64,000 nucleotides of DNA. Origin: an uncultured Nitrososphaeraceae archaeon. Lineage in GTDB: Archaea > Thermoproteota > Nitrososphaeria > Nitrososphaerales > Nitrososphaeraceae. Below are positions 5,323 to 62,929 of this stretch, piece by piece. How positions within the stretch are numbered: position 1 is the stretch's first letter; each line of letters begins with the position of its first letter. The notes below the pieces were generated by a model that saw only the letters and a list, made by a program, of their open reading frames with translations, made no database searches and had not been told where the DNA came from. The position numbers were made by a program, and so were the translations under genes. Location of the stretch: positions 1-64,000 of the forward strand of contig CAVSMN010000021.1 of the NCBI GenBank assembly GCA_963729045.1, read 5' to 3'.

Positions 5323-5376
5323 CCATGTGTATATCCTCATGATTTCCACCGAATCAGATACCTATTTATAGTAACG
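5323..5376 (+). repeat. Dispersed dyad element, class A + tail E (first copy)
   Basis: CCATGTGTATAT-CCTCATG-ATTTCCACCGAA-tcaGATACCTATTTATAGTAACG. Confidence 0.9.
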
Positions 5377-5619
5377 ATATATTAGAATTTGTTATATCTC
5401 AAAAAACTAGACCATTTTTCTGATCATATTATTATTCAAGCATTGATTAATCCGTATGCTTAGGGAAAGGGCCTGCATAATACGAAAATTTTACATTTTC
5501 CCTTAAATCCAAAGATGTAAAAAGACAACATCCTTCATTGCTAAACAGAGGTTTGAGTTTTCTAAATCTTGAAGAAGCATCAAATAAAAATGACTCGACT
5601 ATTAAAGCTCGCCAAAAAG

Positions 5620-5792
5620 GGGAAAAGCCTGTTAGAAAGAACAATGCGTTACATAAAGGGCAAAACTGAATTTTAAGATGATTATTTTCCATGCAGACTA
5701 GAAAATTGTAAACTAGAGCATATACGGGATTGGTCGAATCTATTCACTGAATACCACAACTAGGATTTAGGAACAGTTAATTGAACATAGCA
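5620..5792 (+). mobile_element. IS6-like transposase C-terminal remnant with degenerate right end
   Basis: Reads KSLLERTMRYIKGKTEF*DDYFPCRLENCKLEHIRDW, homologous to 38792-38970; ends TGAACATAGCA, resembling the end at 38784. Confidence 0.7.
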
Positions 5793-6034
5793 ATAGACTT
5801 ATTATTAATCTCTATTTCTTCTGCAATTGCATTAATGCTATGTGTAGATTTCGAATGTAAATTAGAATTCTTTGACATGTTTGCTGACAAGAAATAGATT
5901 TGTTAAAACAAAGAAAATCTATTCGGTCTGGATAAAATAATTAAGTAGATAGAGTAAGTAAAAAGTAATCCCTTTCTAATGAGTCCAATTAACTCAATTA
6001 TTCATATTATTTGACCTGTGAATAGGACATATAT

Positions 6035-6136
6035 ATGAAAGTGAAACATCTATTATTATCGATCATTTTAGCCACGTTTATCGCCGGATTTGGTCTATTT
6101 GAATCCTCAAACACTAGTGCGCAGAACCCCCTTTAA
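6035..6136 (+). pseudogene. Signal-peptide-only gene fragment
   Basis: MKVKHLLLSIILATFIAGFGLFESSNTSAQNPL* is a Sec signal with no mature domain. Confidence 0.4.
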
Positions 6137-6450
6137 TGGGCTTCGGAAATAACTATCCATTGAATCATATAATTAAACTAGAGTTTGAATCTAGGACAAG
6201 CATACATTGACTGTTTTGCAGTTGTGTTCCTGTTAATCATTACTATAGCCTAGACTTTAACCAAATGATCCCAAAGAGGATAAGGACGGTGTTGGATGAG
6301 TTGAGGAGAGAATTAAGTTAGTCTAAACAGTAGTAACGATAGAAATAGTCAAGGTTTGTTGTTTAGCGAAATGTTTAACTGATTACAGAACATAATTCAG
6401 ACTATATAACGGATATTAAACGACTTTTTCAGGTCACAAATAAATTAACT

Positions 6451-6949
6451 ATGATAATTAAAGGTAAAATGTTCCATAATTAATTATTGACCATACTTAC
6501 ATTGTATTTTCCTGTCTCTATCCAATCTAATCTAGTATCTGCCCAAAGTGACGGTTATACTCATGGGTGCTCAGATGGAAAAATATAATCCGAATCAAAG
6601 ATACCTAAATCAGCCAGGAAATGGATCTGAAAATCAAAATGAAGAATTCAGGAATGAGTATATCAAAGGCTTTAATGATTGTTATGGCAGCTACAATACC
6701 TGTTATGATCAGGGCGTCCTTGACGGAATGACTGTTAACGAAAACATGAGGACAGGTCAATTTGAGAGCCAAGTTCAAAGATACGGTGGTTGCTACGACC
6801 AGGGCTTTCATTTTGGATGTGCATTGGTAAAGGGTATGCAGAGGCTTGTTTTGATTATCTGTATGAGCCGCCCCAAAACATCGGGCAACCATGAATTAAT
6901 TCATGGCAGATCCATAGTGATCAGTCCTATTTACAAGATTAAAATATGA
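6451..6949 (+). pseudogene. Frameshifted secreted hypothetical protein (YxxGxxDG-type repeats)
   Basis: Repeated Y.KGFND / YDQGVLDG / YDQGF motifs; the hydrophobic leader is in another frame. Confidence 0.4.
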
Positions 6950-8046
6950 AGAAAATGGTCTAACCATTTCTTTATACTTTCATAAACCTTCGGTTACAAA
7001 TAAATCGATAATATCTATTGTTAATTATTACTGCTAAGATGAGTGGTTTTATATTGCCTAGTTTTGTTTGTTTGGCTTTCTTTGGTTTAATTTCATCAAT
7101 CAAAATAACCATGCTTTAATCTCTCAAGATCAGTAGATTCTATTGTTATTGTTTCAAATACTCATTGTGGAGAGTTTGTCATTCATAATTCCCAAACAAG
7201 TAAATCCTAAAATTGACAAGCAGTCAGAAATTCCGAAATGTCCCTCAAAATGGTCAATAACTGAACTGATCCAGTATTGTGGACCTGATACTAACGAAAT
7301 AATTACACAGAGAGTAACACCGGTGCTAGATTAGTTGAGGAAAGAGTTAAACTTACAAAACCTCCAAATAATAGAGGTTAGTTCCTTTAGACAGCTCTGA
7401 TTAAATTTTACTCAGCAAGTTCCATCCGTACTGAAAAATGTGTTTTTGGCGGTCTAAATTGGACTGAATATTCCTCCGTGTCTGGTTAAAACATTGGTTG
7501 CCTACTGCTACACTGCAATCCGGACCAGTTTGATCGCCATATGCTGCGACACCACCTCCGGTGGCATCACTACCTTCTCCTATAACAAATCCGCAATAGC
7601 CACAATTACTATTATCAGTACCAGACTCTCCATTAGCAACACCACCTTTCTTAACTCTACATACTATCTTTATATTCTATTGGGGTGTTAGCTACATCCA
7701 TGAAGGAACACGGAAAGGTAACAACAACAAATGTAATTATTCTAACAACAGTAACAATAGTATTCATTGGTGCGTTTATTTGTGCTATCACTATCTTACG
7801 ACAAAAGACTAATGCGTAGTATGTACCAAATCCAGCTTATTCTGGTGGTGGAGAAGGACCACCGATAAAACCGTTCCATCCACCTAGTGATGCAGCTCAT
7901 AGCAAACAGCAAGAAGGGTTTAATACCACCGAACCCACATAGCATAACAGTTCTTTTAAATGGGTTCTACTAACAGATGGATAAAAAATGATAAAATTTA
8001 TACTAGTTTTATCTCATATTGGAAACTTCGATCTAACTTCTTAGAA

Positions 8047-9287: not shown

Positions 9288-10658
9288 TTGACTATGTATC
9301 TCACTATAAGATTGCTACGACCAGCGCTTATTACCGCTATAGGGGTACTAGCAGTTTCCATTTTAGCGAATTATTCATTAAGTTTTGGAAGTAATTTGCA
9401 GCAGATAGATAACTCATCGAACAAAGAAAATGTCACACTTTCCGCAATCCTTGAAGACCAAGGCGATCCGGCAAGGTGGAATTCGCTGATTGGGCCAGCT
9501 CTGGATAGGCTTAGAGAGGAGCATCCTGATACCACCATCAACATCGACTACAGAACTTTTCCTTATAATGAAACAAGAGAGAAGTTATTATCGACTCTTT
9601 CGGAACACATCCCAATTGATCTTATTACACTTGACCAGATCTGGCTTGGAGAGTTTGCTGAGGACCGATTAATTGCGGATCTTACAAACTACACACAAAC
9701 CTGGGATCGTCAGAAAGATTGGTATGAAGTAAATTGGGATGGTGGTGCATTAGGTGAGAATATCTATGGCATATGGGCATGGACTGATGTAAGAGGAATT
9801 TGGTACTGGAAGGATTTACTAGAAGAGGCCTCAGTTGATCCTAACTCACTGAAGACATGGGACGGATATATCGCAGCGGCAAAGCAACTAGATTCAGTAC
9901 TTCGACCTAAAGGGATAGAAGGAATTCATCTTACAGGAGCTGGGCATTCCCCTGACCTCTGGTATCCATATCTTTGGATGCTCGGTGGAAATATCTTACA
10001 GGAGAGAGAAGGACATCCCACAAAAGGTACTTACTGGTTTCCTGCTTTTAATAGCAGCGAAGGAGTAAGGGCGATGAATTTCATAAAGGATCAGGTGGAT
10101 GCGGGCATAAAACCTCAAAAGAATCATTTCTGGGGAGAGGAGTTTCTTGATCGAAAATTTGCTGTAATGATAGAAGCCCTACAACATCATATACCCATAA
10201 CGACTGCCGACAACCGATCTGCATTTGAAGAGAAGGTCGGATTTATACCCATGTTTCCTGTTCCACATGAAGGCAATCAAACTTCTACCTTAATGGGGGG
10301 ATGGCTGTTCAGTATACCTTCATCTTCAACTCACAAGGATCTCGCATGGGAGCTAATTACCATTATGCTGGAACCAGATATTCTTGGTCCATATCTCGTA
10401 AACCATGCAAATTTGCCAACTCAGATTCCAATTGGCGAAGGTCCTTTTTCGGAAGAACCAATGAGTGTTATACCATATTATGACGATTTGATTTCCATGA
10501 TTAACTCTGGTCATGAGAGACCCAATATCAGAGAATATTCTCAGATAGCTGAGTTTGTGAAGGAGGCACTAGATGGCGTTTTCTATAAAGGCGCGGACCC
10601 AAAACGAGCTCTAGATGATGCTGCCTCTGCTTCTGCAAAAGTGCTTGGTTGGTTGTAA
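9288..10658 (+). CDS. Extracellular solute-binding protein (sugar ABC SBP family 1)
   Basis: Signal peptide; DQIWLGEF, W..D.R.IWY.KDLL, TWD.Y..AA, GGW.FSIP, ALDDAA motifs. Confidence 0.9.
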   Translation: MTMYLTIRLLRPALITAIGVLAVSILANYSLSFGSNLQQIDNSSNKENVTLSAILEDQGDPARWNSLIGPALDRLREEHPDTTINIDYRTFPYNETREKLLSTLSEHIPIDLITLDQIWLGEFAEDRLIADLTNYTQTWDRQKDWYEVNWDGGALGENIYGIWAWTDVRGIWYWKDLLEEASVDPNSLKTWDGYIAAAKQLDSVLRPKGIEGIHLTGAGHSPDLWYPYLWMLGGNILQEREGHPTKGTYWFPAFNSSEGVRAMNFIKDQVDAGIKPQKNHFWGEEFLDRKFAVMIEALQHHIPITTADNRSAFEEKVGFIPMFPVPHEGNQTSTLMGGWLFSIPSSSTHKDLAWELITIMLEPDILGPYLVNHANLPTQIPIGEGPFSEEPMSVIPYYDDLISMINSGHERPNIREYSQIAEFVKEALDGVFYKGADPKRALDDAASASAKVLGWL

Positions 10659-10827
10659 TTCACGATATATGAAGCTACCATATGCTGTTTCTATATGGAA
10701 TAGAGGCATCGAGAATATCCGGGGCATTGACTTGAGATGTCATCCTTGAAGCATCCCAAGAGATCGCAGTCATATTTTCCAATTCAATGCAGGGTTAATT
10801 GTGGAGTAATGAAATATCTCGACATAG

Positions 10828-10882
10828 ATTGCATACACTAGTGTATTACATACCGCCGAATCCGCTATCTATTTATAGTAAC
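10828..10882 (+). repeat. Dispersed dyad element, class B (degenerate left arm) + tail E
   Basis: TGTATTA-CATACCGCCGAA-tccGCTATCTATTTATAGTAAC. Confidence 0.75.
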
Positions 10883-10987
10883 TACTGGTAAGACAATGAA
10901 GTATCATTCTATGTTAAATTGCTTGGATTTTGATAAATAAAGGGATGAGTGCTTTACCCAGTCCTGCGGTTTTTTTGTCTTATCCTG

Positions 10988-11185
10988 TTAAAAGTAAGAT
11001 ATTACCTGACTATCATGCTCTGTAGATTGTCCTTGGAATATGGGGGAACCAGAATACATATTTCCAGCATCTGATTGTCCACCTGCATTATTTCCGGAAT
11101 TTACCTGTACCTGAGTGTTTATGTTATTACCAGGTCCGAGTATTCTTTCAAATGACAAGAGTAACGTTCCAATTACAGAAACCAT
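10988..11185 (-). pseudogene. Fragment of an N/Q/G-rich secreted-type protein
   Basis: GNNINTQVQVNSGNNAGGQ low-complexity segment; similar composition to 22830-23570. Confidence 0.35.
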
Positions 11186-11437
11186 TTCTGGAATTAATTT
11201 CTAACATACGTATTTTCCATTACCTGGGTTATACCTCTATCAAACTGGAAGACTCAACCATTCTAGTCGCTATGACCTCATCCTGAAAAAAACACTAATA
11301 AACCCGTCAAATGGGTCTGTCAAGATAACCAAAATAAGAAAAATCTATCAAATTATACGATGATAATTCTAAAAAATTTTTTCTCAGGCACACAAACCTT
11401 CACTCTGAACTAACCTTGTAGCAATGACTATTTATCT

Positions 11438-12272
11438 ATGTACATTATAAGAGAAACATTGAATCAAATAACTAATTTGTTAGTACTTTTGATAGTGGCT
11501 TTATTTATTTTACCTGTCTCAGCATTCATGTATGCTAGTGGGTCTACTGATAATAGTGACTCATCACCGTCTGACTTTCTTCCCGATAACGTCGACTCAT
11601 CATCCGGTAGTGAGTCTACTGATAATAGTAACGGCACGTCAGACAGTGGGTCTACTGATAATAGTGACTCATCACCGTCTGACTTTCTTCCCGATAACGT
11701 CGACTCATCATCCGATAGCGGGTCTACTGATGTAAATGCCGATTCATCAACAATCGACTACGGAAAATAATCCCACTTTACCAAGTGAATCTCCGTTAAG
11801 TAACAATACTGGAAATGTACAAGGGGAGGATTTGGTCAGCATCATCCTGACCTTGCACAACCAAGAGCGTGCTGCAGTTGGGGTTCCACCGCTTACGTGG
11901 AGCGACAGCCTCGCCGCCCACGCACAGCCTTGGGCCGATAATGTATATGCTACAGGTGATGCGTCCCATTCAAGTGGGCGTGCTGACTTCGGTTTTTATG
12001 GTGAGAACATGGCAAGGGGAGGAGGTCCGTCTTATGCAACTCCGTCTTGGCTAGCTCAGACGTGGGCCAACGAAAAGAGTGGATATGTACCGGGCACCCC
12101 CGCGTCCGATAGCACTGGCCATTACACTCAGATGGTTGACAAGCAATCAACCGAGGTTGGTTGCGGGTTTACTAGTGGACCCGGTGGTCTATACGCTGAA
12201 TATGGTGGAACGAATGTATTGGTTTGTCAATATACTCCCCCTGGCAACTGGAATAGTCAACCACCATATTAG
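11438..12272 (+). CDS. Secreted CAP/SCP-domain protein with Ser/Asp-rich linker (one frameshift at ~11765)
   Basis: Signal peptide; linker with a 70-bp direct repeat (11537-11606 and 11645-11714); LHNQERAAVG..L.W, GENMA, GHYTQMV, VGCG, VCQY.PPGN. Confidence 0.9.
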
Positions 12273-12703: not shown

Positions 12704-12743
12704 TTGCAAATTCAAGTCGAATTTGTTTCACATATCACCGAAC
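12704..12743 (+). repeat. Dispersed dyad element, class B
   Basis: TTGCAAAT-TCAAGTCGAATT-TGTTTCA-CATATCACCGAAC. Confidence 0.85.
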
Positions 12744-12957
12744 CAAAATTGAGGTTATTTTTTCTAGAGAATATGCTTAAAAAGTCACTAAAGATTTAAC
12801 ATCTTTTAAAATTCTCGCATAGATGGAGGAGGATTGGCTAAAAGAATAAAGTGGATCTAGTTAAGGATAGTATGAGTTATAACTCAAATATTTCTTAAAG
12901 ATTCTTCCCAATTGTTTATTGGTATAGTTTTTTTCTAAAATCAATTAGGGGGAGATA

Positions 12958-13458: not shown

Positions 13459-13739
13459 AATAATACCTGATATCCTTAGAGGATAAATCATAAGCGGATG
13501 TATCACCGATGGTAATACAAAATAACTATCATTATATTTTTTAAAAAAGAAATGAGCTCTCAAACTCCTTCAGATTCTTAATCTATTTGTACATTCTACA
13601 TATTACCCAAAATCTCCCTCAAGATTAATTCTTTTTGTCTTTGAGACATACTTAGTTCTGAAAGTGTTAGTCAATTGTTAAATCCAAAATTGAACGTTAA
13701 AAATATGGATCTAGCCGACCTATCCAAGGTTATTTTGTG

Positions 13740-13776
13740 TGCAAGATAAGTCAAACTTGTTTCACATACCACCGAG
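13740..13776 (+). repeat. Dispersed dyad element, class B
   Basis: ATAAGTCAAACT-TGTTTCA-CATACCACCGAG. Confidence 0.85.
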
Positions 13777-13832
13777 GACAAATATCTAAGATAGTAATTC
13801 TTTTAATAATTTGTTGTAATTGTTATAAAGTT

Positions 13833-15412: not shown

Positions 15413-15734
15413 AAAATTAATCCAAAACTAATGTTCATTAAGTCTGAAATGATCATAGATTAAATAATATGTATACAAAAGTTAATGTTTTATCGGGTAG
15501 AACTATAATTTCGCAAGAAAATATAGCTTTATTCAATAATAGCATTTTTAGACTCTAGTATAGGACATACGAGGATTTGCAAATATCGCGAGTTCAGCTG
15601 TGAGAATTAGGATTATTCTTTAAGAGAACAGTATAATCATGAATTGACCATCCGTTGTAATTATTATTATACCTAGGAAACCCACAAATCTTTGAAAACA
15701 AATTTCATTCTCCTGATTAATATTAATTCCCAAC

Positions 15735-15788
15735 TAGTGTGAAATTTCATACTCGTCCCACCGAATTAGATACCTACTTATAGTAACG
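15735..15788 (+). repeat. Dispersed dyad element, class C + tail E
   Basis: TAGTGTGAAATT-TCATACT-CGTCCCACCGAA-ttaGATACCTACTTATAGTAACG. Confidence 0.9.
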
Positions 15789-15797
15789 TTTTAATAT

Positions 15798-17946: not shown

Positions 17947-18022
17947 TCATATGTAAAGGAAACTAAAAGAGAACTCTCTATCTCCAATACCTCATGGTAA
18001 AAGTGTTTATTGGGTAATAAGA

Positions 18023-18106
18023 TTCGGTCAAATTTGTTTCACATACTGGCGAACCCGCAAACCATTCGGAACTTAATTCCACCGAACCAGCTACCTATTA
18101 GTAACG
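18023..18106 (+). repeat. Dispersed dyad element, class B + half-site D + tail E
   Basis: TTCGGTCAAATT-TGTTTCA-CATACTGGCGAA-cccgcaaaccattcGGAACTTAATTCCACCGAA-ccaGCTACCTATTAGTAACG. Confidence 0.9.
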
Positions 18107-18173
18107 AAGCGAATACAGTTAGAGGTAAAGTAATTCTAAACTGTCTGTATTATTAAAAAAGTTTATAAAAAAA

Positions 18174-18368: not shown

Positions 18369-19432
18369 GACATATTGATATTGTGCAACATAATAAAGTT
18401 ATCCTAAATATTCTCAAATGTTGGAAATTTCAAATTTTCGATTCCCGTAACTTCATAATTTAATACATATTATAATATATTGTGAATATTACTTTTCTCT
18501 ATAATTACACCGGCATTGGTTCTTGGATTTTATATCTCTTTTACTTTACTTTTATTACAAACTCCATGGCTTCCCCAAATCCGTCTTTTGAAGTGACGTA
18601 GTAAAACGACAGTGACACTTTTAGTTCGTTAAGTAGAGACTTTGACCAGACTAAAGACAATATTAACGACGATGATAAAAACTCCAAAGACACAACCAAC
18701 GATGATGAGAGCTTACAAGAACGATCTTAAACATTTTAAAATCACTACTCTTAGGATTCCTTAATTATTTGAAGGTATTTAGGATAAATTATTTCAAGTA
18801 GTTAAAAATTTTGATTTTAAAATCTATCAATTTTTAGATTAAATAAACAAATTAAGAACGATCTATAAATTCCAAAAAAAGTTGATGTGTAAAAATGTTA
18901 AGATATCATATCTGCAATTGTATTTAATTTTACTGAACTATTGAATTTGTAGAAATCATATAATAAATAGTGGATTACCCTCAGATCGGGGGTCTTTCCA
19001 AAGAAACGGCTTAGTGACCCTAGAGATAATAAATTTGCCTCATCATTCTGCAATTTTATGCCAACTTGTAGGATGCGAAGTTCAAGTAAAAATTGAATTT
19101 CAAAAAGTTTTTTAATATGTTCAATGAGTATATGATTACCGTAGTCAAAAATCGTCTTCCAATTAAGGTCTTATACTCTTTCTGTGTAAGATCTTACTAG
19201 TATTGGATGCCTTTAACAATTACCCACAAGAAGAGAACCTGTTTGGCTATTATGTGATCTATGAGTACTAGATTCTAACATATCGAGAATATTATTAAGA
19301 ATTACCCTTTCGATGGTTGATCACTTTGATTAACAAAAATGTCATTTCATCGATTTACCCTAGTGATTCGCTCTTGTTGTCCTTTTAGATCATATGTTTA
19401 GTTCGTATCGTATTCAAAAAATCATTCTAGAC

Positions 19433-19499
19433 TAGTATGAAATTTCATACCCGTACTACCAAACTCATAATATACGAAACTTAATCCTTGGGAGCCTAT
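19433..19499 (+). repeat. Dispersed dyad element, class C + partial D + AGCCTAT end
   Basis: TAGTATGAAATT-TCATACC-CGTACTACCAAA...GAAACTTAATCC..GAGCCTAT. Confidence 0.75.
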
Positions 19500-19569
19500 T
19501 TTCGTCAATATTTGGTATTAAAAACCGTTTGATACCCATGTTTATATAGTATGTTGAGTGCTATATAAT

Positions 19570-20184: not shown

Positions 20185-20359
20185 CAAAAAAATAGACAAA
20201 TTCAAAACTGCAAATAAAATCAACCCATCAGTTTTCCTTTGGAGTTAAACAAACTCAAGGAATTAAGTTACCAATACTATAGCTAAATTTACTTTTCTTA
20301 CCATTGTCTTTTTCATCCATAAAGAAAAAATGATTTAAATTATAACTCAATAAGACAAC

Positions 20360-20423
20360 TCAAGTGAATTTTCTCATGATTTCTCCAGAATCCCTATACT
20401 ATATGGAACTTAATCCCGCCGAC
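20360..20423 (+). repeat. Dispersed dyad element, class A + half-site D
   Basis: TCAAGTGAATTT-TCTCATG-ATTTCTCCAGAA-tccctatactatatGGAACTTAATCCCGCCGAC. Confidence 0.8.
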
Positions 20424-20689
20424 CTAATTCATTAACAACCTTACAATATCTTATTCCCAAAAATTTATACAAAGTATGGAGAATACATTGGACATTTGAG
20501 AATGTTTGATTAAGTTTAGTTTACCACTATTGTTCAGAATGCTTCTTGATGAAGTAAATTCATTAACTGTTGTAATTTCATCTAAGACACCTTCTAAATA
20601 CTTTACATCATCTAGTGTATTTAGTTCTACAGGATCCGAATCACTTCATGAATTAAAGGTTATGCAAAGAGTATCTCATTGATGAGTTG

Positions 20690-22666: not shown

Positions 22667-22812
22667 TATGATTTCCACCGAACCCTTATACCATACCATA
22701 CACTTGATTGTAACCAAACATTAATGTTCGCGACTTAGGAGATAGAGTTGCAAATTCGGTCAAATTTGTTTCACATTCCACCGAACCAGTTACCACTATA
22801 TGGTATAGTAAC
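22667..22812 (+). repeat. Two adjacent dispersed elements: class A right half + partial D (22671-22696) and class B + tail E (22755-22812)
   Basis: ATG-ATTTCCACCGAA-CCCTTATACCATA; GAGTTGCAAA-TTCGGTCAAATT-TGTTTCA-CATTCCACCGAA-ccaGTTACCACTATATGGTATAGTAAC. Confidence 0.9.
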
Positions 22813-22829
22813 AATTTAGTAACACTCGC

Positions 22830-23570: not shown

Positions 23571-23747
23571 ATTAATTCAATATTAATAGATCATATAACA
23601 ATGGCTATTAATTGTACTTTTAAATATTGCTGTGTCAATATCATTGATTTTTGAGAATGATAATGTTGATATGCTAAATATTGGACTATTCTCAGATTAT
23701 CAACAAAATCAAAAGAATGATATAAACAAGGTGGGATGCATTAAAAC

Positions 23748-23799
23748 TCATGTGGATATCCTCATGAATTCCACCTAACTAGCTCTATATCTTAGTAAC
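23748..23799 (+). repeat. Dispersed dyad element, class A + tail E
   Basis: TCATGTGGATAT-CCTCATG-AATTCCACCTAA-ctaGCTCTATATCTTAGTAAC. Confidence 0.9.
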
Positions 23800-24029
23800 C
23801 ATAAATACAATGATAGTCTAACCCGGATTGAAAATCATGAATTATTCAATCGAATTATTTCGATAGCGTTAATTGGTTCCTTATGGTTTATTTTTATTCT
23901 TTTTTGTTTCTTGGATATTGAAATGTACCTAGTAGGTATGATACTTTCCAAATGTTCTTAATATAATATACCATCGTGTTGATGGGGATCATGAATATAT
24001 AGTCGCATGGTTAATGAAGAAACATAAAA

Positions 24030-29301: not shown

Positions 29302-29387
29302 TCATAGGATACATTATCGCCAATTTTCTATGCCTATCATTTTCTCTTTATTCATTAAATGCATTATGGGAACCTAAATAAACAAAC

Positions 29388-29440
29388 CCATTTGGATATC
29401 CTCATGATTTCCACCGAACACGCTACCTATTTTAGTAACG
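29388..29440 (+). repeat. Dispersed dyad element, class A + tail E
   Basis: CCATTTGGATAT-CCTCATG-ATTTCCACCGAA-cacGCTACCTATTTTAGTAACG. Confidence 0.92.
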
Positions 29441-29593
29441 ATATAGGAAGGTATAAGATATAGGGCTAATACTTAATTTTCATCTTTTTAAAACAAATCT
29501 TTTTTGTGTTTTCATCTTCACAATTGAGATGGGAAAAACGACCATTTGACTATTTTGAGAGTAAAGGTCAGATAAACGATCTTTTGGATTCTG

Positions 29594-30098: not shown

Positions 30099-30141
30099 AA
30101 ACCCTTATACCATGAGGAACTTAGTCCCCCAAGAAGCCTAT
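30099..30141 (+). repeat. Dispersed element, module D only + AGCCTAT end
   Basis: AACCCTTATACCATGAGGAACTTAGTCCC..AGCCTAT. Confidence 0.7.
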
Positions 30142-30265
30142 GAATTTTTCTTTACATATTAGAAAGAAAATTGGGTTCATCGTTTGACTAATCACTGGAT
30201 ATCAATTAAAGGATAAATAGAAGATGGTAATTGTTTTAATAATTTGTTATACATATTGTTAAGTT

Positions 30266-36894: not shown

Positions 36895-37169
36895 GCCCAC
36901 CCTTTTTTCTATAGACAAGACAATAGCCTGCAAGATTATCATTTCTTTTCATCTATTATTTTTGTCGCGAACCTCGACACTCAAAGAGACTGACCACTGA
37001 ACCTGAATCCCAACAATCAAGATGTTATAATAGTTCCATGTCATTTTTGCCGCCTAGCCCACTCGATTCGCAATTGTATACTGCGTTCAATATCTTGCCC
37101 AATAAAAATCCGAAGTGGGATATATTTAATACACAAACTCTTAAAACTTTTCAAAAATTTATTATAGAC

Positions 37170-37255
37170 TCGTGTGAAATTTAATACTCGTCCAATCGAA
37201 CCATTATACCATACAGAACTTAATCATTATAAATCAACTCTTCATTTTGGTAACG
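37170..37255 (+). repeat. Dispersed dyad element, class C + D + tail E
   Basis: TCGTGTGAAATT-TAATACT-CGTCCAATCGAA-CCATTATACCATACAGAACTTAATC...TTTTGGTAACG. Confidence 0.85.
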
Positions 37256-38079: not shown

Positions 38080-38130
38080 GTTGAAATGCAAGCAAATTTG
38101 GGGTTGTTCCCACCGAAACAGCTTACTAAC
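38080..38130 (+). repeat. Dispersed dyad element, B-like left arm with variant spacer
   Basis: TGCAAGCAAATT-TGGGGTT-GTTCCCACCGAA-acaGCTTACTAAC. Confidence 0.6.
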
Positions 38131-38267
38131 ATGGTCTCATGGTAAGAATGCTTTCATGAATTATTCAACCAATAATATAATGAAATGATATCCAGAAAAA
38201 CGCAATTGATTGCAATTGATTACAACAAAAACGTGGACATTATTAGTCCAGATTTTCAATCATTCTT

Positions 38268-38612: not shown

Positions 38613-38687
38613 AATGAATAATACGTCTCTTTCAATAGTAGTTATACACATCATGGCGGTACAAACTAGGTAACCATAGTCATCAAA

Positions 38688-38730
38688 CCGATGTTATATC
38701 CTAATGATTTTAACCGAACCCGCCTATTAT
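38688..38730 (+). repeat. Dispersed dyad element, class A (degenerate)
   Basis: CCGATGTTATAT-CCTAATG-ATTTTAACCGAA-CCCGC. Confidence 0.75.
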
Positions 38731-38783
38731 ACGGGTTATTCTTTAATATATTCGTCATAAAAATATGGATCTTTATGATTTTC

Positions 38784-46454: not shown

Positions 46455-46492
46455 AAATTGAGTCAAATTTGTTTCACATATCCGAACCCGCA
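46455..46492 (+). repeat. Dispersed dyad element, class B (2-nt deletion in right arm)
   Basis: TTGAGTCAAATT-TGTTTCA-CATATCCGAA-CCCGCA. Confidence 0.8.
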
Positions 46493-47680: not shown

Positions 47681-48828
47681 CAACAATCCACCCAACACTA
47701 TATGTAAACAAGACAATACTCAAATACTGGTTGGTCAGATGAGTTCTTTGAATAGATATCCATGAATATCTATTATATATCCATGAATAAAAAGATGCGG
47801 TAGTATTGATTTTGATATGACACCATTTCCTTCTCATATCGGGATTTTTGCGGGGAGGAATGTAAAATATTAATTGAGTATCATACCTTGTTGATTGTTC
47901 TTGAAACATTGGAGAGTCGGAGTGCATGTTTCCGTTATCTAATTATATTGCCACGTTACTACCAAAGTTTAATTGAATCAGGATGTTCATGTTGTTACAA
48001 AACCTGATTTTCCTTCGGTTCGACAACAAAGAAAACATTTCTAAATAAATATAATCAAACTGTTTTTGTAAGTCAGGAGGATAATAGATATTCTAGGTGA
48101 TACTGTAAAACCCACACTCTTAAAACTATTTGAGTCAACTCTATTGAAATTAGAATAGATGGTGCTTTATGACTATAATATCAAATACGAAAAAAATGAT
48201 ATTAGATCTTATAGTGGAAAAGAAACAAAAGGTGTTAACTAAGTCAATTTTAGCGAAAATCACAATAGGAGGTGATTCTAATCTTATCGAGAGAGAAAAA
48301 TGAAGACAATCATGAAATTGAACCATTAATGATTTCCGTCCTGCCTATCATATCAGCTCAAACAAAGTGGAATTGTTTTAGAGATTGAGGACCTTTTTCA
48401 ATTACTCTTATCGAAGGAAACGAATTTCATGACAAGTGTTATTTCCACTCGAAAAAGACAAAAAAATCCACAATGGGTTTTAAACCTATTCTTGATTTTA
48501 TTTAATTCCAGAATCAGGATATAGTCCAAAACTAATGGTGGCACCTAAAGAAAGCATCAAAAAAAACAATCAAGTAATTTTGTGAAGCAACGATTATCCT
48601 CATTTGACGGATAGAAATTTCGAAGAGACTACATAGAGGGAAAAGTTGCCTAGAGTTTCATGCTCCTACAATTGAAGAAGTGAGGAGGCCTATTCGTTGC
48701 TATCCCGATAGGCGTATTCGTTCAATCGTGATTGTAATGACATGGAATCTATTTAATATGGGTCATATATCTCCAATTAGGACCTAATATCATTTTGATC
48801 TTTATATACGAAGTTATCATAACATAAT

Positions 48829-50209: not shown

Positions 50210-50552
50210 TATCCTAAGCAATTAATATATCAGAAAAGGTACCTATTTCTTTATACATGTCTATAGGTACGGAAAAGATATTCTATTTAATATATGAACA
50301 TTCCTTATAATATGAAACTTTTGAGCAATAGTTAATTGGTCTATTTTATTGATAGTAATCTTAAAGTAAAAATTTAAGAGATCAATAAACTTATCGACCA
50401 TACGATGTTTACAAAACAATGAATTATGATATCTATGATGTAAAATAGTGATTTGTTGACATTATTATCGATGAATCTCTTGCTATAGACACAACAATGT
50501 ATTTCAAAGCGGATATCACATACTAATTCAATTCAATACTCAAATTAAAAAA

Positions 50553-50586
50553 TAAGGACAAATTTGTTTCATATACCGCCTAACCC
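50553..50586 (+). repeat. Dispersed dyad element, class B
   Basis: TAAGGACAAATT-TGTTTCA-TATACCGCCTAA-CCC. Confidence 0.75.
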
Positions 50587-50849
50587 ATATCAGATCTGTA
50601 ATGGATATTTGTATAATCTGATGAGAATGGCAGCAGCCCTAGAATGTCTGATTTGAACACTTTAGATGAACTAGTTTATTAAGCAAGTATTTCGGCTAAA
50701 GATAAATCAAAAGCTACGTCACGACAATTGAAGCATATAACTATCACTTTTGCTTTCACTTTAAAGCAATTACAGTGATTTTTCAGACGAGGGCTTAACT
50801 AGGAAGGATTAATTGACCGATCTGATTGAGTTCATGAAAGATTTACAAA

Positions 50850-53240: not shown

Positions 53241-53287
53241 GAGTTGCAAATTCTGTCAAATTTGTTTCATCTACTATCTTACCCGCA
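53241..53287 (+). repeat. Dispersed dyad element, class B (right arm decayed)
   Basis: GAGTTGCAAA-TTCTGTCAAATT-TGTTTCA-tctactatctta-CCCGCA. Confidence 0.8.
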
Positions 53288-53531
53288 TATTATGCGGGAA
53301 TATATGTCAGATATTCTTTATTATATTCGTCATGATGTAAGGAACTTTATTATTTTCATATTAACTGGAGATTAAATATATCTCTGGAAAATTAGAGATC
53401 ACAAAAAGAAATATTTAATTGTTGGACAATCTCTCATGTTTAAGCTTTATTCTAAAATCTTATCCAATCTAGTCAAATTACAAATCAGGCCAATAACTGT
53501 AAAATATTAGAACTCTGAATATTGAGTATCT

Positions 53532-53930: not shown

Positions 53931-53968
53931 CTATGATTTGAAATTATTTACAAACAAACTTGAAATAC

Positions 53969-54018
53969 TCATGTGGATATCCTTATGATTTCCACCGATC
54001 CAGATCTCTATGTTAGTA
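53969..54018 (+). repeat. Dispersed dyad element, class A + tail E
   Basis: TCATGTGGATAT-CCTTATG-ATTTCCACCGAT-ccaGATCTCTATGTTAGTA. Confidence 0.9.
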
Positions 54019-54312
54019 TTGATCAGGATTTTATTGCAAATACTACAAATTCAAGGTGGGATAGTAGCGAACTAAGACATAAAATTTTTCTTGTCCTTTC
54101 TCATCATTCAGGTAAATATAACCACTTCTTGTTGAAGATGGGGGCCATATGGTCAAGTTCTCCGATTATCAACGAAAAATTTGGTGGTCGGTCTCATGGT
54201 CAAATGTTCAAATGTCGAATTAATGTCAATTACTAACGTCCAAGGCAAATTTTCAAAAGCCCCGATTCAAACATGTCTTCTACCCTATCCGATATCGTTA
54301 CTTCGCCTGTAT

Positions 54313-54839: not shown

Positions 54840-55204
54840 ATCAATCTTTTTGATATAGTAGATTAATAAGTTTGCGTCGTATTTCAAGGAGGAATGCTGA
54901 AAATAATATTGATTATAAATTGGTAAATATTCCTTACTCTGTTGTTTGATGATTCTTTTGACAAAATCATGTTCAATATTCTAGTAACTAACTAAATCAT
55001 TCAGATTATAACAATTGAGAATCTATTTAACAACAAGAAATGGACTACAGAAATTTCCAGGCAATCAAACTTTAATCGCGGCTTATTTTCATATCTATAG
55101 ATTTTTTCTTATATTACAAAAACATGTCATATTTGTTACACTTACCCATGAAGCCATCTAGGGTAACTAATCTCAGGTATCTTGAGTAGGCTATCTGCCC
55201 AATG

Positions 55205-56967: not shown

Positions 56968-57002
56968 ATTCCCACCGATTGCGCTACCTTATATAAGTAA
57001 CG
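56968..57002 (+). repeat. Dispersed element, right half-site + tail E
   Basis: ATTCCCACCGAT-tgcGCTACCTTATATAAGTAACG. Confidence 0.75.
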
Positions 57003-57609: not shown

Positions 57610-57775
57610 ATTGCTATAATAATAAATTATTACTCTCGTACGACGCAATGTGCTTAGATAGATTTACCTATTCAATTATATTTTGTTATAGATTGATGAC
57701 CTTCTTGTAATGGTTCCCTTGTATAACAAGGCCCAAGTCAAAATCTGTTTTTTAACCCATTGTTTGTTGCTCGAC

Positions 57776-57828
57776 TCATAGAGATATCCATATGATTTCC
57801 ACCGAACACGATACCTATCCATGGTAGC
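57776..57828 (+). repeat. Dispersed dyad element, class A + tail E
   Basis: TCATAGAGATAT-CCATATG-ATTTCCACCGAA-cacGATACCTATCCATGGTAGC. Confidence 0.88.
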
Positions 57829-57924
57829 TATTGGACATTCTTTTGTTGATAATGCAAACGAGAGTATTGATACGCTGAATTATGTTATGAATCTACTTAT
57901 GACTATTCTTATAATTACTTAATA

Positions 57925-60332: not shown

Positions 60333-60582
60333 TACCTACAATGATCAGCTATTGTATGTATAGCCTTTTTTTATTACACCAAAATTAAAATTGGGTTAAG
60401 AGTACATTATCAAGATATTTTATTATCGTTTTTGTGCCTGTAAATATGAGATTTCATTATTTGACAATATGATAACAACAAAAGGTCAAAATAAAAATAA
60501 GTTTTGCTAGTAATAAAATCAAATATTCTCAGATTATCAATCCATTTACCGGACTGACTCCAGTTAGAAAAACCTATTAAAC

Positions 60583-60711
60583 CCATGTGGATCTCCTAAT
60601 GATTTCCACCGAACCCTTATACCATAGGAACTTAATCCCACTGAACCCGCTAGCTGTTTTACTATTATTGAGTGATAGAAATGGGTCAAATTTGTTTTAC
60701 ATACCACCGAG
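60583..60711 (+). repeat. Composite dispersed element: class A + D + weak E + class B
   Basis: CCATGTGGATCT-CCTAATG-ATTTCCACCGAA-CCCTTATACCATAGGAACTTAATCCCACTGAA-cccGCTAGC...ATGGGTCAAATT-TGTTTTA-CATACCACCGAG. Confidence 0.92.
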
Positions 60712-61026
60712 CCTGTTATGTTATTGTTCCTTTTTCAGAACTTTATCCCAATAACCAGAGAAAGGTAGATTGATAGAAATAGAATACAGTGATCAATATT
60801 CAATGATCCTGTTTGCAATGCGGACATCCAAAACTTGAGAAAAATGCGTAGGAGGATTAAATATGTTCATTGACATTGTGGATAATCTTCCTGGGAAACA
60901 GGTACAAAAATGCGTCAGGAGGTATGAGATGAGTCTATACTAATTATCAAGTTATATATAACGATAATACATAGAATTGGGATTTATTACCAATATATTT
61001 AATAGGATCCATTACGATACTAAAGT

Positions 61027-61323: not shown

Positions 61324-61499
61324 ATATTTATTAGAAACAACAGAAAAATCCAGCCATTTGGTTTATCCTTTGAGTCAAACAAACTCTAAGAATTTTTAAA
61401 CTCATCGATACTGAAATTAAATTCACTTTTCTGAGCCTTATCTTTTTCATCCATATGAAGAAACTTGATTTAATAATTAGACTAATTTCAAGGAGTAAC

Positions 61500-61552
61500 T
61501 CATGTGGAAATTCTCATGATATATACCGAACGTGCCACATGTTTTGGTAACG
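61500..61552 (+). repeat. Dispersed dyad element, class A + tail E
   Basis: TCATGTGGAAAT-TCTCATG-ATATATACCGAA-cgtGCCACATGTTTTGGTAACG. Confidence 0.85.
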
Positions 61553-61601
61553 ATGTAATATAATAGTCACTGGCACGACGGATTTAGAGATTGACGATGG
61601 A

Positions 61602-61830
61602 CAGACCTGGGCAGACGAAGTGTGGTTGCCGAAAAGTAAGATTATCAAGATGCACCGTTCTAGACTATGGGCTGGAACGGTGCTCCCGGTCATTATGCTA
61701 ATAGGGTCTGGCGGACTACGATCGAGGTTGGTTGTGCGACTGCCCATAGTGATATACTGTGGTTCCCGTTTCTGGTGTTTCGCTACACCCCGACGGACAA
61801 CATCTTTGGGCAGCCAGTGTATTGGAAAAG
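61602..61830 (+). pseudogene. CAP/SCP domain remnant
   Basis: QTWADE / WVAEK*DY..GHYANRVWRTTIEVGCATA..LVFRYTP..N..GQPVY. Confidence 0.7.
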
Positions 61831-62084
61831 CCTTGTTCCAATCGCGGTAAGTATCTATCTATCACTATCTGCCAAGACCCTGATAAAGTTGCTCCAAGCA
61901 ACATATACCCTATTAAACTAAGGATAGGTAGAATCTTAATCATCTCCATCTTTACCCTATTCCCCTACTTCCTCCGCTGTCCCCTTCCCCAGTAGTCGTA
62001 TAAGGAGATACTATGGATTCACTGTTATAATATATGGTAACCATATTTTATCAGTTCAATCCATTCTTTATATTCTCATAGGCA

Positions 62085-62709
62085 TTAATGCCCATGTTCA
62101 GGTGGATTATTACCATAAATGTTTAATGTCCCTGTACCATTATTATATTGATAAAACGATGCAACCGGTCCAGGATAAACCTTATTGTTTACAGTTATTG
62201 GTGTATATTTGCTAATTCCTTGATATAATTGACCATTATTTTCCTTTGTAATGTTACTCACACTAAAAACTCGACTTATTTCTTCAATGTTTTGTGAATT
62301 ATTTTTTTGTAAATCAGCCAATTCTAAATGAGAATGATGGAAAAATGCTAATATTTGAAATAATCACTTTGTTATTTTCTGAGTTGAACAATGGATGTTG
62401 GTCTATCCTTTGATTTCCACTTTCATTCACTAGAACCGTGACACTTCCGTTTGTAGGGTTGTATCGCTCTCCTGTAGAACTATACCCTCCAGGATCCTTG
62501 ATTGTTTGCATGGTAATAGATAGGTAAGGCTTATTTACCGTATTTGCATCAGGAATTTGAGTTGCATTTTCAACCGAAGATATTGTCGTGTTTCGTTGTT
62601 GCGAATATGATTTGTGAATAATAGGAATGCCACCATAAATCACACAAACAGTTGTTAGAAATATTGATACAACACATATACATAACCAACTATTAAAAGT
62701 TCTATCCAT
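62085..62709 (-). CDS. Secreted hypothetical protein (frameshift at ~62320)
   Basis: Two overlapping ORFs; the upstream one has a signal peptide. Confidence 0.5.
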
Positions 62710-62898
62710 TGTTAATATGATGATTACCTAGTAAAATACTTTAAAGGTCGTCTATTCATACGATGATTTCAAATACTTTAGAAATCATAGTCGATTATGT
62801 TATTAAAAATGGCTTTCGAGTCAAATATATGTGCGATGCAGCTGAAGTCTATTTTTCGATTATAAGTTTGTACATATCCCTTACCTTATTGAATTGAC

Positions 62899-62929
62899 TC
62901 ATCTTAATATCCTCATGATTTCCACATGA
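62899..62929 (+). repeat. Dispersed dyad element, class A (right arm ends CCACATGA)
   Basis: TCATCTTAATAT-CCTCATG-ATTTCCACATGA. Confidence 0.8.

Follow-up and report, generated by a model that had tools for sequence, protein, structure and literature searches.

The question that this locus raises is what lies behind the roughly 26 related intergenic elements that punctuate the window, that is, the whole 64,000-nt stretch of contig C21 of genome G000 that was analysed here. In the best reading, they are attachment (att) sites, and much of the accessory gene set of this soil ammonia-oxidising archaeon is kept between them in an integron-like array that can be reshuffled. An earlier note, made from the window alone, had regarded the elements as co-oriented 31-bp dyads and suggested that a cassette system had built the island, leaving them as its recombination sites or as scars. 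Overall, that interpretation is partly supported. The tRNA-derived core, the homology breaks, the freely assorting arms and the adjacent integrase described below bear out the cassette system, while the proposed size and architecture of the site have to be revised.

Members of one element family are indeed present at all 26 listed places, as 23 full copies and three partial ones (22671, 30099 and 56968). The full copies align without gaps over 40 nt, with the sole exception of a 2-nt deletion at 46458. Eleven copies of the box CCACCGAA were counted in the window where 0.74 would be expected; none of 100 shuffles reached this number, and ten of the 11 are on the + strand. A genome scan with a profile made from the window copies gave 35 matches at E<=10, 29 of them on C21, all on the + strand, and six elsewhere; with all filters off, 24 of 27 matches at E<=0.5 were on C21, again all on the + strand. 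Co-orientation was likewise confirmed for 25 of 25 copies (binomial p = 6e-8) and holds for 111 of 112 sites in six arrays. The sites are intergenic and almost exclusive to the island in this genome. No ORF with a Pfam match contains a site, and two short unsupported ORFs (13737-13958 and 53973-54236) are each overlapped by one. Copies that had gone unlisted were also found (7919-7946, second cores at 18079 and 60638, and a degenerate copy at 55106-55154), and further degenerate copies extend along the + strand of C21 up to ~126 kb. In the genus Ca. Nitrosocosmicus, the model CM R1 has matches in 34 of 34 genomes, with 1-54 per genome.

Such elements might be regulatory DNA, namely operators, promoters or terminators of an accessory regulon whose transcription factor would bind the palindromes. 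They are intergenic, a dimer could bind the palindromes, the right arm termed X below includes a TATA-like TATTTATAG, and the first site has a wHTH gene as its neighbour. Nevertheless, all copies point the same way although the flanking genes are convergent, divergent or tandem, and they keep to one island instead of occurring genome-wide, as the earlier note would have expected of operators. In addition, the core is the tail of a tRNA and synteny breakpoints coincide with the sites (see below). This reading is already disfavoured and must be considered highly improbable.

The element is ~70-100 bp long, instead of 31 bp, with the core TTCCACCGAACC flanked by a left and a right arm. Left arms vary among palindrome types A, B and C, and right arms among X (GCTACCTATTTATAGTAACGATAT), Y (a small hairpin followed by AACTTAAT and a second core) and an integrase-proximal type. 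The 12/7/12 dyad first described is real for type A, where it reads GTGGATAT-CCTCATG-ATTTCCAC, but it is weak in types B and C. Over 112 sites, its pairing reaches 55%, against 19-33% when slid. An overlapping second dyad, TCATGtGGAT/ATCCtCATGA, pairs at 57% against 16-33% and shows covariation between arm types. The 7-bp spacers differ among types A, B and C, and thus are unusable as a common overlap region. Instead of having a loxP- or dif-like 12-7-12 core, the sites are hybrid junctions, in which a tRNA-derived core joins the arm of one element to the arm of another. The type of the left arm is independent of that of the right (chi-square p 0.25), and the arms assort freely.

All sites described here lie on the + strand. 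Type A left arms are followed by X right arms at site 1 (5320..5385, core box 5346-5353), 23745..23805 (core CCACCTAA), 29385..29450 (core 29411-29418), 53966..54030 (core CCACCGAT), 57773..57835 (core 57799-57806) and 61497..61560 (core ATACCGAA). By contrast, the type A site at 38685..38745 (core TAACCGAA) has the Y hairpin only (CCCGCCTATTATACGGG), and the double site at 60580..60660 has a core at 60606-60613, a Y arm and the second core CCCACTGAA (60638). The half-site at 22667..22701 combines a truncated A arm, a core at 22675-22682 and a Y hairpin, and the site at 20357..20430, which ends a phasin-like cassette, has an A-like arm, the degenerate core CTCCAGAA and a Y arm with the second core CCCGCCGA. 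The last type A site, 62896..62960, has the decayed core CCACATGA and then the integrase-proximal right arm GCTTAGAAATACACACTAATATA, which is also found after tRNA-Lys on G000 contig C14 and in G046.

Type B left arms are found at 12709..12748 (core TCACCGAA, other right arm), 13743..13782 (core CCACCGAG, X-like right arm), 22752..22817 (TTCGGT...ACCGAA dyad, core 22778-22785, X arm), 46455..46492 (the core with the 2-nt deletion), 50550..50589 (degenerate core CCGCCTAA), 53248..53300 (decayed core CTATCTTA, Y hairpin CCCGCATATTATGCGGG) and 60678..60717 (core CCACCGAG). They also open the double site at 18020..18110, where a degenerate core (GGCGAA) and a Y arm precede a second core (18079-18086) and an X arm, and the degenerate copy at 55106..55154, just 3′ of the P450 gene, is B-like. 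Type C arms are present at 15732..15797 (palindrome GTGTGAAATTTCATAC, core, X arm), at 19430..19500, which heads the phasin-like cassette (degenerate core CTACCAAA, Y arm), and at 37167..37235 (degenerate core CAATCGAA, Y arm). Other left arms are seen at 10827..10890 (palindromic ATACACTAGTGTAT, core CCGCCGAA, X arm) and 38084..38150 (GCAAATTTGG, core 38110-38117, X-like arm). Among the partial copies, 7919..7946 (core TACCACCGAACCC) has no recognisable left arm, the half-site at 56968..56998 (core CCCACCGAT, X-like arm) has none, and 30099..30129 is the remnant of a Y arm with the degenerate second core AACTTAGTCCCC.

Short, structured, intergenic repeats in many copies also recall MITEs, REPs or IS ends spread by a transposase. 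The left and right arms are unrelated, however, and so form no terminal inverted repeats; target-site duplications are not seen in the aligned flanks, the copies are clustered and strictly oriented, and a transposase family is represented in 0 of 54 scanned ORFs. It is extremely improbable that the elements belong to this class.

The origin of the core is found in a tRNA gene. The conserved sequence formerly called the right arm, TCCCACCGAACCCG, is the final ~13 bases of tRNA-Lys(CTT) and comprises, in tRNA terms, the 3′ strand of the T-stem, the 3′ strand of the acceptor and the discriminator base. Four relatives, two of them with single-contig genomes, have an array that begins at tRNA-Lys(CTT) and runs 3′ from it. 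In G041, G012 and G020, and likewise in G046, an intron-bearing tRNA-Lys(CTT) provides the first array site with its 3′ end. The flank 5′ of this gene is collinear in four of four relatives, and the variable array is on its 3′ side. In G000, tRNA-Lys is on contig C14 and the window array on C21, where it does not start at that tRNA and abuts the wHTH gene, hflX and the rRNA operon. As these neighbours are placed elsewhere in five of five relatives, either the genome has been rearranged or the assembly is discontinuous here.

The earlier note had also suggested looking for a tyrosine recombinase with an adjacent site. A divergent tyrosine integrase with the motif R..HxxR..H..Y is in fact encoded immediately 3′ of tRNA-Lys. 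The gene is intact in G046 (408 aa, 29 nt 3′ of the tRNA gene) and a frameshifted pseudogene on G000 contig C14. The order core, arm, integrase is repeated on G002 contig C35 and G005 contig C319, and a paralogue lies 166 nt 3′ of tRNA-Arg(GCG). Across 30 homologues, residues R163, H293, R296, H318 and Y329 do not vary. The AF2 model (pLDDT 83) has Foldseek matches to XerA, Tn1549 Int, Cre, XerH and lambda Int (E 1e-8 to 1e-4), and the predicted fold is closest to XerA, Cre and lambda Int. Residues and predicted fold together mark the protein as a tyrosine recombinase. Intact members of the family are found in 29 of 34 genomes, with 1-22 matches per genome. A PF00589 search of G000, which is 87% complete, gave no match, and no integrase was found in or beside the array of G041, G012 or G020.

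Inside arrays, integrase remnants follow sites. The window was said to have no recombinase gene; it has no complete one, but two remnants are present on the + strand. An N-terminal part at 5481..5666 (hmmsearch E 3.5e-6; tblastn 67% identity to aa 16-42) follows the core of site 1 by ~130 nt. A middle part is found at 48608..48784 (hmmsearch E 3.5e-7); its upstream core is lost, while the integrase-proximal arm AATGATATTAGATC..ATAGTGGA persists at ~48197-48220.

The modules between sites have a median size of ~2 kb and often hold one gene, in either orientation. They are common to relatives in shuffled order, with homology broken at the core box. The earlier note had asked whether breakpoints between aligned islands of relatives fall inside the 7-bp spacer; the aligned sequences place the apparent exchange points in the CCACCGAA box instead. 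Breaks are far from unrelated to the sites, as 17 of 88 HSP ends lie <=12 nt from a box against 1.06 expected, with a maximum of nine in 1000 random placements. For instance, homology to G004 starts exactly at 5346 in site 1 and at 57799, a G041 block starts at 7921, and G020 homology ends at 38117. The site at 29385..29450 is the junction between a sensor-kinase module and a multi-copy Zn-ribbon cassette; G041 homology ends at 29418, and homology to six cassette copies starts at 29411-29414. One cassette with seven copies shares its sequence from the box onward, while the upstream arms are A, B, Y or other. The left end of the phasin-like cassette bears an X arm in six of seven copies, the copy of G000 being headed by a C/Y site, and an A arm is readable at the right end in five of seven. 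Metagenome contigs from four studies also show joins at boxes: contigs from three studies connect 18045-18055 with 29411-29424, and one contig connects 13774 with 30132, next to the Y arm remnant at 30099..30129, itself the end of a joint. These contigs are mixed, with at least 90% likeness and short sides of 20-36 nt, and what the joints show is a related arrangement in other cells rather than excision in this one.

Taken together, the locus is probably an array of att sites built by serial integrase-mediated insertion at tRNA-Lys(CTT), now made up mostly of integrase-less cassettes and integron-like in its working. Circular arm-core-arm elements would have been inserted repeatedly by a lineage-specific clade of tyrosine integrases, either at the tRNA-Lys 3′ end or at any core already in the array. 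The left arm of each site (palindrome type A, B or C) would have arrived with the upstream module and the right arm (X, Y or integrase-proximal) with the downstream one, and each insertion would add one co-oriented core. Intervening modules could then be excised, deleted, duplicated or re-inserted through recombination between any two cores. Being without an integrase, the majority of modules would depend on integrases encoded elsewhere. We infer that the core CCACCGAA(CC) is where the integrase clade adjacent to tRNA-Lys cuts, that cassettes lacking an integrase are mobilised in trans, and that the system remains active. Such an array would hold much of the archaeon's accessory gene set.

It is also possible, if rather unlikely, that sites left by insertion at tRNA-Lys are now only inert scars, with integrase-less modules immobile and all shuffling, duplication and loss due to homologous recombination and deletion between ~70-bp repeats. 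Integrase remnants do occur inside arrays, many cores are decayed, and frameshifts or a stop disrupt every integrase copy found in G000 (C14, C12:89-1157 and C12:401300-402406). In a comparison of divergence, shared cassettes stand at 75-93% and the core flank at 80-94%; with cassettes about as diverged as the core, there is no sign of recent horizontal spread. Copies in the same genome are 91-98% identical, none fully so, and certain cassette contents are found in both orientations relative to the sites, which recombination between direct cores cannot produce. Nevertheless, an integrase remnant is recognisable in just two of the ~25 window modules, arms are well conserved as families across species despite differing module contents, multi-copy single-gene cassettes keep both arms, and intact integrases of the family are widespread, as noted above.

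Archaeal integrons are reportedly the subject of work by Ghaly et al. in 2022 (bioRxiv 10.1101/2022.02.06.479319), and a true integron-type mechanism, with sites recombined as folded single strands like attC, deserves consideration. As in integrons (IntI, attI, attC), co-oriented sites separate small, mostly single-gene chromosomal cassettes that own a site and no recombinase, the recombinase is of the tyrosine type, and the structure of the left-arm palindrome is conserved across sequence types. By contrast, single-strand folds are weak here (-1.8 to -8.7 kcal/mol), with two of eight reaching z <= -2.4, both being the two strands of one site. The integrase is not of the IntI type, there is no fixed integrase-attI platform, and genes lie in either orientation, thus without a common Pc-type promoter logic. 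The origin of the core in a tRNA suggests a classical double-stranded attB, and single-strand recombination is hardly credible. The att-site array is thus no integron, but would work in the manner of an integron cassette array or of stacked cis-mobilisable elements. XerA/dif and pdif systems are similar in that short dyad-containing tyrosine recombinase sites bound recombinase-less modules, but the integrase scores only 28-31 bits on the XerA model (cut-off 220) and the core is tRNA-derived. pdif sites alternate in orientation, whereas the sites here are all co-oriented. Integron, Xer/dif and MITE identities were all rejected for the array.

A likeness in layout is offered by the cis-mobilisable elements (CIMEs) of streptococci, where accretion and mobilisation at the 3′ end of tRNA-Lys(CTT) stack integrase-less, att-flanked modules with an integrase-bearing element, whose integrase is thought to mobilise its neighbours. 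Here too, integrase-less modules with att sites are stacked at a tRNA-Lys gene. CIMEs are bacterial, ICE-related, tens of kb long and few per locus, and we know of no arrays of dozens of sites among the streptococcal tRNA-Lys elements.

Tandem accretion arrays of integrative elements at one tRNA or tmRNA gene are also comparable. In Dehalococcoides, ssrA-specific genomic islands form tandem arrays, 16 of 31 with an integration module (McMurdie et al. 2011, PMC3146451), and archaea, Thaumarchaeota among them, have tandem integrated elements (Krupovic et al. 2019, PMC6563490; Badel et al. 2021, PMC8371274). The Thaumarchaeota survey (PMC6563490) gives tandem pairs, not long arrays, and 0 occurrences for Nitrosocosmicus. 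There, as here, islands stacked 3′ of a tRNA-type gene are delimited by direct repeats of its 3′ end, an integration module adjoins the integration site while some islands lack one, and the arrays contribute strongly to gene content at the strain level. In contrast to those arrays, the present one, hosted by an archaeal ammonia oxidiser, is finer grained (23-30 sites within 58 kb in the window, up to 54 model matches per genome, the ~2-kb median module), nearly all modules are without an integrase and often hold one gene each, and short conserved arm families reassort freely. A second comparable array is built on the tail of tRNA-Gly(CCC).

The 26 coordinates that the earlier note had listed as co-oriented 31-bp dyad sites of a candidate cassette system all belong to one element family, with 23 full copies and three partial ones (at 22671, 30099 and 56968). 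In the source genome (2.85 Mb in 22 contigs, 35% G+C, 87% complete), a profile built from the window copies gave 35 matches at E<=10, 29 of them on contig C21, which carries the window, all on the + strand, and six elsewhere; in this count the matches within the window arise by construction, and what is informative is that few matches lie elsewhere and that the copies all point one way. With filters off, C21 holds 24 of the 27 matches at E<=0.5. Thus, the copies are nearly absent outside C21 and run in one direction (25 of 25 alike, p 6e-8), which is not the even spread through core regions that the note had named as a sign against its own reading. The window has 11 copies of the box (CCACCGAA), as the most conserved part of the core is called here, where 0.74 would be expected; ten of them are on the + strand. 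All sites are intergenic, with convergent, divergent or tandem neighbours, and, as had been stated from the sequence, none interrupts an intact CDS. At gathering thresholds, Rfam matched only rRNAs in the window, and ARAGORN found no tRNA there.

The element itself is longer than the 31 bp first assigned to it and consists of three parts, a left arm, a core derived from a tRNA tail and a right arm, which together form a composite site of about 75 bp. The left arm is of type A (TCATGTGGATATCCTCATGA), B (GTCAAATTTGTTTCACAT) or C (AGTGTGAAATTTCATACT), and the core reads (T)TCCACCGAACC(CG). On the right, the arm may be of type X (GCTACCTATTTATAGTAACGATAT), of type Y, where a short GC-clamped hairpin is followed by AACTTAAT and a second core, or of an integrase-proximal type, for instance GCTTAGAAATACACACTAATATA at site 62896. 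Two overlapping dyads occupy the left part of the element. A palindrome centred 13 nt into the left arm shows 57% Watson-Crick pairing over 112 sites, vs 16-33% when slid, with compensatory differences among arm types. The 12-7-12 dyad originally described pairs at 55%, vs 19-33% when slid, and is a good description of type A (GTGGATAT[CCTCATG]ATTTCCAC); in the other types, its pairing depends mostly on invariant bases. Single-strand folding of the sites is weak (z +0.7 to -2.5).

The origin of the core is given by its sequence, (AA)TCCCACCGAACCCG, which is identical to the end of tRNA-Lys(CTT), the shared part being the last ~13 nt. In three relatives (G041 and G012, both single-contig, and G020), the array opens with a site formed by the 3′ end of an intron-bearing tRNA-Lys(CTT), and so does the array of a fourth, G046. 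In these four genomes, the arrays begin at an intact tRNA and run 3′ of it; the 8.7 kb on the 5′ side are collinear in all four, and the 3′ side is the variable array. The tRNA-Lys(CTT) of the source genome lies at 114694-114783 of contig C14, that is, on a separate contig from the window array, the head of which adjoins a wHTH gene (4763-5239), hflX (3104-4252) and an rRNA operon. This operon is on the - strand (1-2579), with an LSU gene cut by the contig end (1-714) and an SSU gene at 1112-2579. The hflX and wHTH genes are separate loci, far from the array, in all five relatives compared; therefore, at the array head, either the source genome is rearranged or its assembly is discontinuous.

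Directly 3′ of the tRNA-Lys on C14 lies a multiply frameshifted integrase gene (114812-116025). Its homologue in G046 is an intact 408-aa ORF that starts 29 nt past the tRNA end, with the array about 20 kb further on; in the ~20 kb behind this integrase, Pfam recognises only two of 20 ORFs (an NMT1-like protein and Hsp20), leaving 18 without a family. Core, specific right arm and integrase follow one another in this order in two further relatives as well (G002:C35 and G005:C319), so that a tyrosine recombinase with an adjacent site, which the earlier note had suggested looking for, is present in these two and in G046, and as a pseudogene on C14. Nine of 34 genomes have a tRNA-type core with the specific, integrase-proximal arm after it. 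In G041, G012 and G020, no integrase was found in or beside the arrays. The view that the window has no recombinase gene needs amending, as it contains two integrase remnants (5481-5666 and 48608-48784), and it stands in that nothing else is detected at E<0.1. The relatives' arrays hold a few more remnants, which usually come from the N-terminal part and lie shortly 3′ of a site. Elsewhere in the source genome, a paralogous integrase with one in-frame TGA (C12:401058-402406, near a contig end) lies 166 nt 3′ of tRNA-Arg(GCG); targeting of tRNA 3′ ends is therefore a property of the family. A further frameshifted integrase occupies C12:89-1157, and 6 kb downstream of it stands a solitary A/Y site (C12:7388).

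This integrase family is only weakly similar to PF00589, to the XerA model and to PHROG integrases. PF00589 has no match in the source genome (87% complete), because its integrase copies are frameshifted or broken and divergent, and its integrase matches in five relatives all lie apart from the arrays. It scores two paralogues at 28.4 and 23.2 bits and does not match the tRNA-adjacent integrase. The family has 847 relatives at E<=1e-5; among the 120 listed, PF00589 is found in a minority and PF16795 additionally in one. Within the genus Ca. Nitrosocosmicus, 29 of 34 genomes hold members, with 1-22 matches each. The residues R163, H293, R296, H318 and Y329 (R, HxxR, H, Y) are invariant in 30 sequences, and the top Foldseek matches of an AF2 model (pLDDT 83.2, pTM 0.64) are all tyrosine recombinases, namely XerA, Tn1549 Int, Cre, XerH and lambda Int. 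Sequence searches against solved structures, using a single integrase sequence and a three-sequence profile, gave no match.

Modules of the source genome's array, that is, the stretches of DNA between two sites, recur in the arrays of five relatives in a different order. The position of the breaks was examined with 44 HSPs inside the window (at least 200 nt and at least 75% identity), which provide 88 ends. Of these, 17 lie within 12 nt of a core box vs 1.06 expected, and the maximum in 1000 random placements of 28 boxes was nine; the remaining ends mostly fade out in diverged intergenic DNA. Synteny breakpoints thus fall at the sites, as had been anticipated, although not inside the 7-bp spacer where exchange had been placed, as homology breaks at the core box. 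Because the dyad spacers of types A, B and C differ and the core is the sole sequence common to the partners, we infer that exchange between modules happens in the core and not in the spacer.

Individual cassettes illustrate these joins. The Zn-ribbon cassette (29411-29755) has seven copies in four genomes, in which similarity begins at the box, and upstream of it stands an A arm, a B arm, a Y second core or other sequence. On the left, the phasin-like cassette (19500-20383) is headed by an X arm with a 150-nt leader in six of seven copies, the source genome's copy having a C/Y site at its head instead of the X arm; at the right end, an A arm is readable in five of seven. The types of left and right arm at one site are statistically independent (p 0.25), and within modules the right arm of one site shows no association with the left arm of the next (p 0.88). 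Metagenome contigs of four studies, on soil, sediment and rhizosphere, carry alternative joins whose ends are at boxes, for instance 18045/18055 to 29411/29424 in three runs; these are related arrangements in other cells and not proof of excision. The breakpoints at the boxes, the shuffling of modules among relatives and the independence of the arms bear out the proposal that these are recombination sites, or scars, of a cassette system.

The sites are widespread in the genus. Of 24 other genomes of the genus, 21 have the A-type 15-mer, with up to one mismatch, as does 1 of 16 genomes of the order's other families; a reversed-pattern control gave 0-1. A covariance model gave 1-54 matches per genome in all 34 genomes of the genus, and an exact 13-mer is shared by 25 of 33 of its genomes and by 10 of 25 from a second genus in the family. 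Among representative genomes of 185,579 species, the exact 25-mer of arm plus core occurs in 31 places, nearly all in records labelled Nitrosocosmicus, Nitrososphaeraceae or Nitrososphaerales, with one MAG labelled Nitrosopumilus sp. As for a free element, the 16-mer ATGATTTCCACCGAAC has nine loci in IMG/VR, none with the left-arm palindrome or an integrase homologue, and these were set aside as chance matches; an IMG/VR search with the integrase alignment returned a single relative, at 25% identity.

A second array of this kind is anchored at another tRNA. In a control count of tRNA 3′ 12-mers, based on the 23 tRNAs that ARAGORN lists in the source genome (one of them unusable, as it runs off a contig end), the tail of tRNA-Gly(CCC) occurs 11 times. 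On contig C13, the last ~26 nt of this tRNA (91703-91778) are repeated six times behind it in co-oriented form, spaced 1.3-3.6 kb apart; the array spans C13:91703-107641, and further copies lie at C10:144226-170537 and C16:120025. Its modules encode three alpha/beta-hydrolase paralogues, an aquaporin, a split luciferase-like monooxygenase and a PKD protein. No integrase family was detected among the 10 ORFs scanned in this array. Inverted copies of T-arm sequence are contained in its arms. In the relatives, the tail is repeated in co-oriented form as well (seven copies each in G041, G046:C2 and G004:C15), and at least one copy of the repeat is present in 34 of 34 genomes. As the tRNA-Gly tail array is genus-wide, cassette arrays anchored at tRNA tails are a general trait of the genus.

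The simplest account of these arrays would be serial site-specific integration at the 3′ end of tRNA-Lys by this clade of integrases. Each insertion would add a co-oriented core between arms derived from the element, the integrase presumably cutting within the core CCACCGAACC, and recombination between cores may then excise, delete, duplicate or re-order modules. A few modules are decayed integrase-bearing elements. Most are cassettes of one or a few genes that have no integrase but keep both arms, and these would have to be moved in trans.

Whether such movement still takes place is where the main rival explanation differs. It gives the arrays the same origin and regards the sites as now inert scars that are shuffled by homologous recombination. 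In accordance with this, the integrases of the source genome are broken, many cores are decayed and some module contents are inverted relative to the sites. Shared cassettes have diverged about as much as the core flank (75-93% vs 80-94% identity), and copies within a genome are 91-98% identical. Nevertheless, inert scars fit less well with arms that are conserved across species, with single-gene cassettes that are intact between two arms, and with the abundance of intact integrases in the genus. We advance only tentatively, and with somewhat less than even credence, that the platforms at tRNA-Lys(CTT) and tRNA-Gly(CCC) are a working archaeal counterpart of chromosomal integrons and not a graveyard. 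If they do work, a lineage-specific clade of tyrosine integrases, carried on occasional master elements, would act in trans, separately at each of the two tRNAs, to capture, duplicate, excise and re-order integrase-less cassettes of one or a few genes.

In its operation, the array resembles an integron or a stack of cis-mobilisable elements. The functional likeness to integrons proposed in the earlier note holds for the co-oriented sites and small cassettes, but membership of either the integron or the Xer/dif class does not. Like an integron, the array has co-oriented sites (111 of 112 over six arrays) that part small cassettes, with a median interval of 2.26 kb (16 intervals below 1 kb, 54 of 1-3 kb, 28 of 3-8 kb and eight above 8 kb). 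In contrast to an integron, it lacks an IntI next to an attI at its head, and the array heads of G041, G012 and G020 are without an integrase; its integrase differs from IntI, a fixed platform and attC-type folds are absent, and genes lie in both orientations. Folding of the attC type is not supported, as single-strand folds are weak, and the conserved sequence is a tRNA tail. XerA was the only recombinase family matched in NCBIfam at E<=1, with 28-31 bits against a cut-off of 220; these matches include no separate integron-integrase model, although the description of NF040815 reads 'site-specific tyrosine recombinase/integron integrase'. XerA/dif sites or pdif modules were discarded because the integrase is far below the XerA cut-off and exchange occurs outside the dyad spacer; set against a dif-like 11-6-11 site, the dyad is seen in type A arms only. 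Elements with SSV-type (suicidal) integrases have attP inside the integrase ORF, so that integration splits the gene, whereas here the ORF is intact when integrated, its start lying 29 nt beyond the tRNA on the 3′ side. Ends of a known IS or MITE family, which the note had named among the findings that would speak against it, do not fit, as left and right arms are unrelated to each other and none of the 54 ORFs scanned has a transposase family. The system does agree with tandem arrays of tRNA-targeting tyrosine-integrase elements in the identity of the core, in the start of the array at the tRNA (in G041, G012, G020 and G046), in an integrase adjacent to a site (in G046, G002, G005 and, as a pseudogene, on C14), and in the catalytic residues and fold.

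Earlier papers describe elements integrated in tandem at tRNA and tmRNA genes, as well as islands that have lost the integrase (PMC3146451, PMC6563490, PMC8371274), and one Nitrosocosmicus genome paper reports integrase-flanked genomic islands whose structure was left unresolved (PMC13245735). In the literature on Nitrosocosmicus and archaeal integrons, supplementary files apart, we found no description of these arrays. What is new is their scale and fine grain, arm families that reassort freely, their occurrence at two tRNAs throughout a genus of ammonia-oxidising archaea and the identification of the integrase clade. If the account is true, site-specific recombination at tRNA tails organises and exchanges much of the accessory gene set of this ecologically important genus, including, in the window, those for solute-binding proteins, sensor kinases, P450, copper, phasin-like and CAP-family proteins and hydrolases, which would offer a concrete mechanism for strain-level differences in Nitrosocosmicus. 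As a working device, the arrays would shape the accessory genome of ammonia oxidisers of soil, wastewater and skin. They are also a large and well-resolved archaeal example of cassette arrays bounded by tRNA tails, on which reports have been scattered, and suggest that integron-like gene organisation can come from ordinary tRNA-targeting integrases. No genetic system is known for ammonia-oxidising archaea; integration vectors would naturally set out from a native integrase, its defined site of ~75 bp and the tRNA-Lys gene as chromosomal target.

The ORFs between the sites of the window encode solute-binding proteins, Cache and histidine-kinase sensors, a CAP-family protein, HxlR, an aldo-keto reductase, a cupredoxin-like repeat protein, DsbA-like, SIMPL and patatin proteins, a DASS transporter, an NHL-repeat protein, a glyoxalase, an M32 peptidase, P450, Pth2 and a methyltransferase. 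Several of the accessory genes are broken. The M32 carboxypeptidase gene is in two frames (50850-52350), a multicopper oxidase is present as an 84-aa fragment (35977-36231), and a 122-aa fragment with a metallo-beta-lactamase fold (48829-49197) lies beside an integrase remnant. Internal repeats are found in a 502-aa ORF with a weak plastocyanin-like match (24030-25538), which has four 183-nt tandem repeats that are 99% identical, and in the NHL-repeat gene (45298-46100), made of five 141-nt tandem units 63-100% identical to a reference unit. The island also holds dispersed direct repeats outside the att-site family (13788-13933 with 30221-30366, and 33358-33581 with 34689-34915; 135-146 nt, 73-83% identical). 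In relative G015 (locus L029, G015:C1:1788001-1804000), a ThiC gene (445 aa, PF01964) is located between two co-oriented sites at 9660-12245, with an intact integrase just past one of them, so a housekeeping-type gene appears to lie inside a site-bounded module. Finally, a long homopolymer-like tract at C20:30611-31114 of the source genome, read within an ORF as a run of about 70 Phe codons, has a solitary site nearby, at C20:34920.
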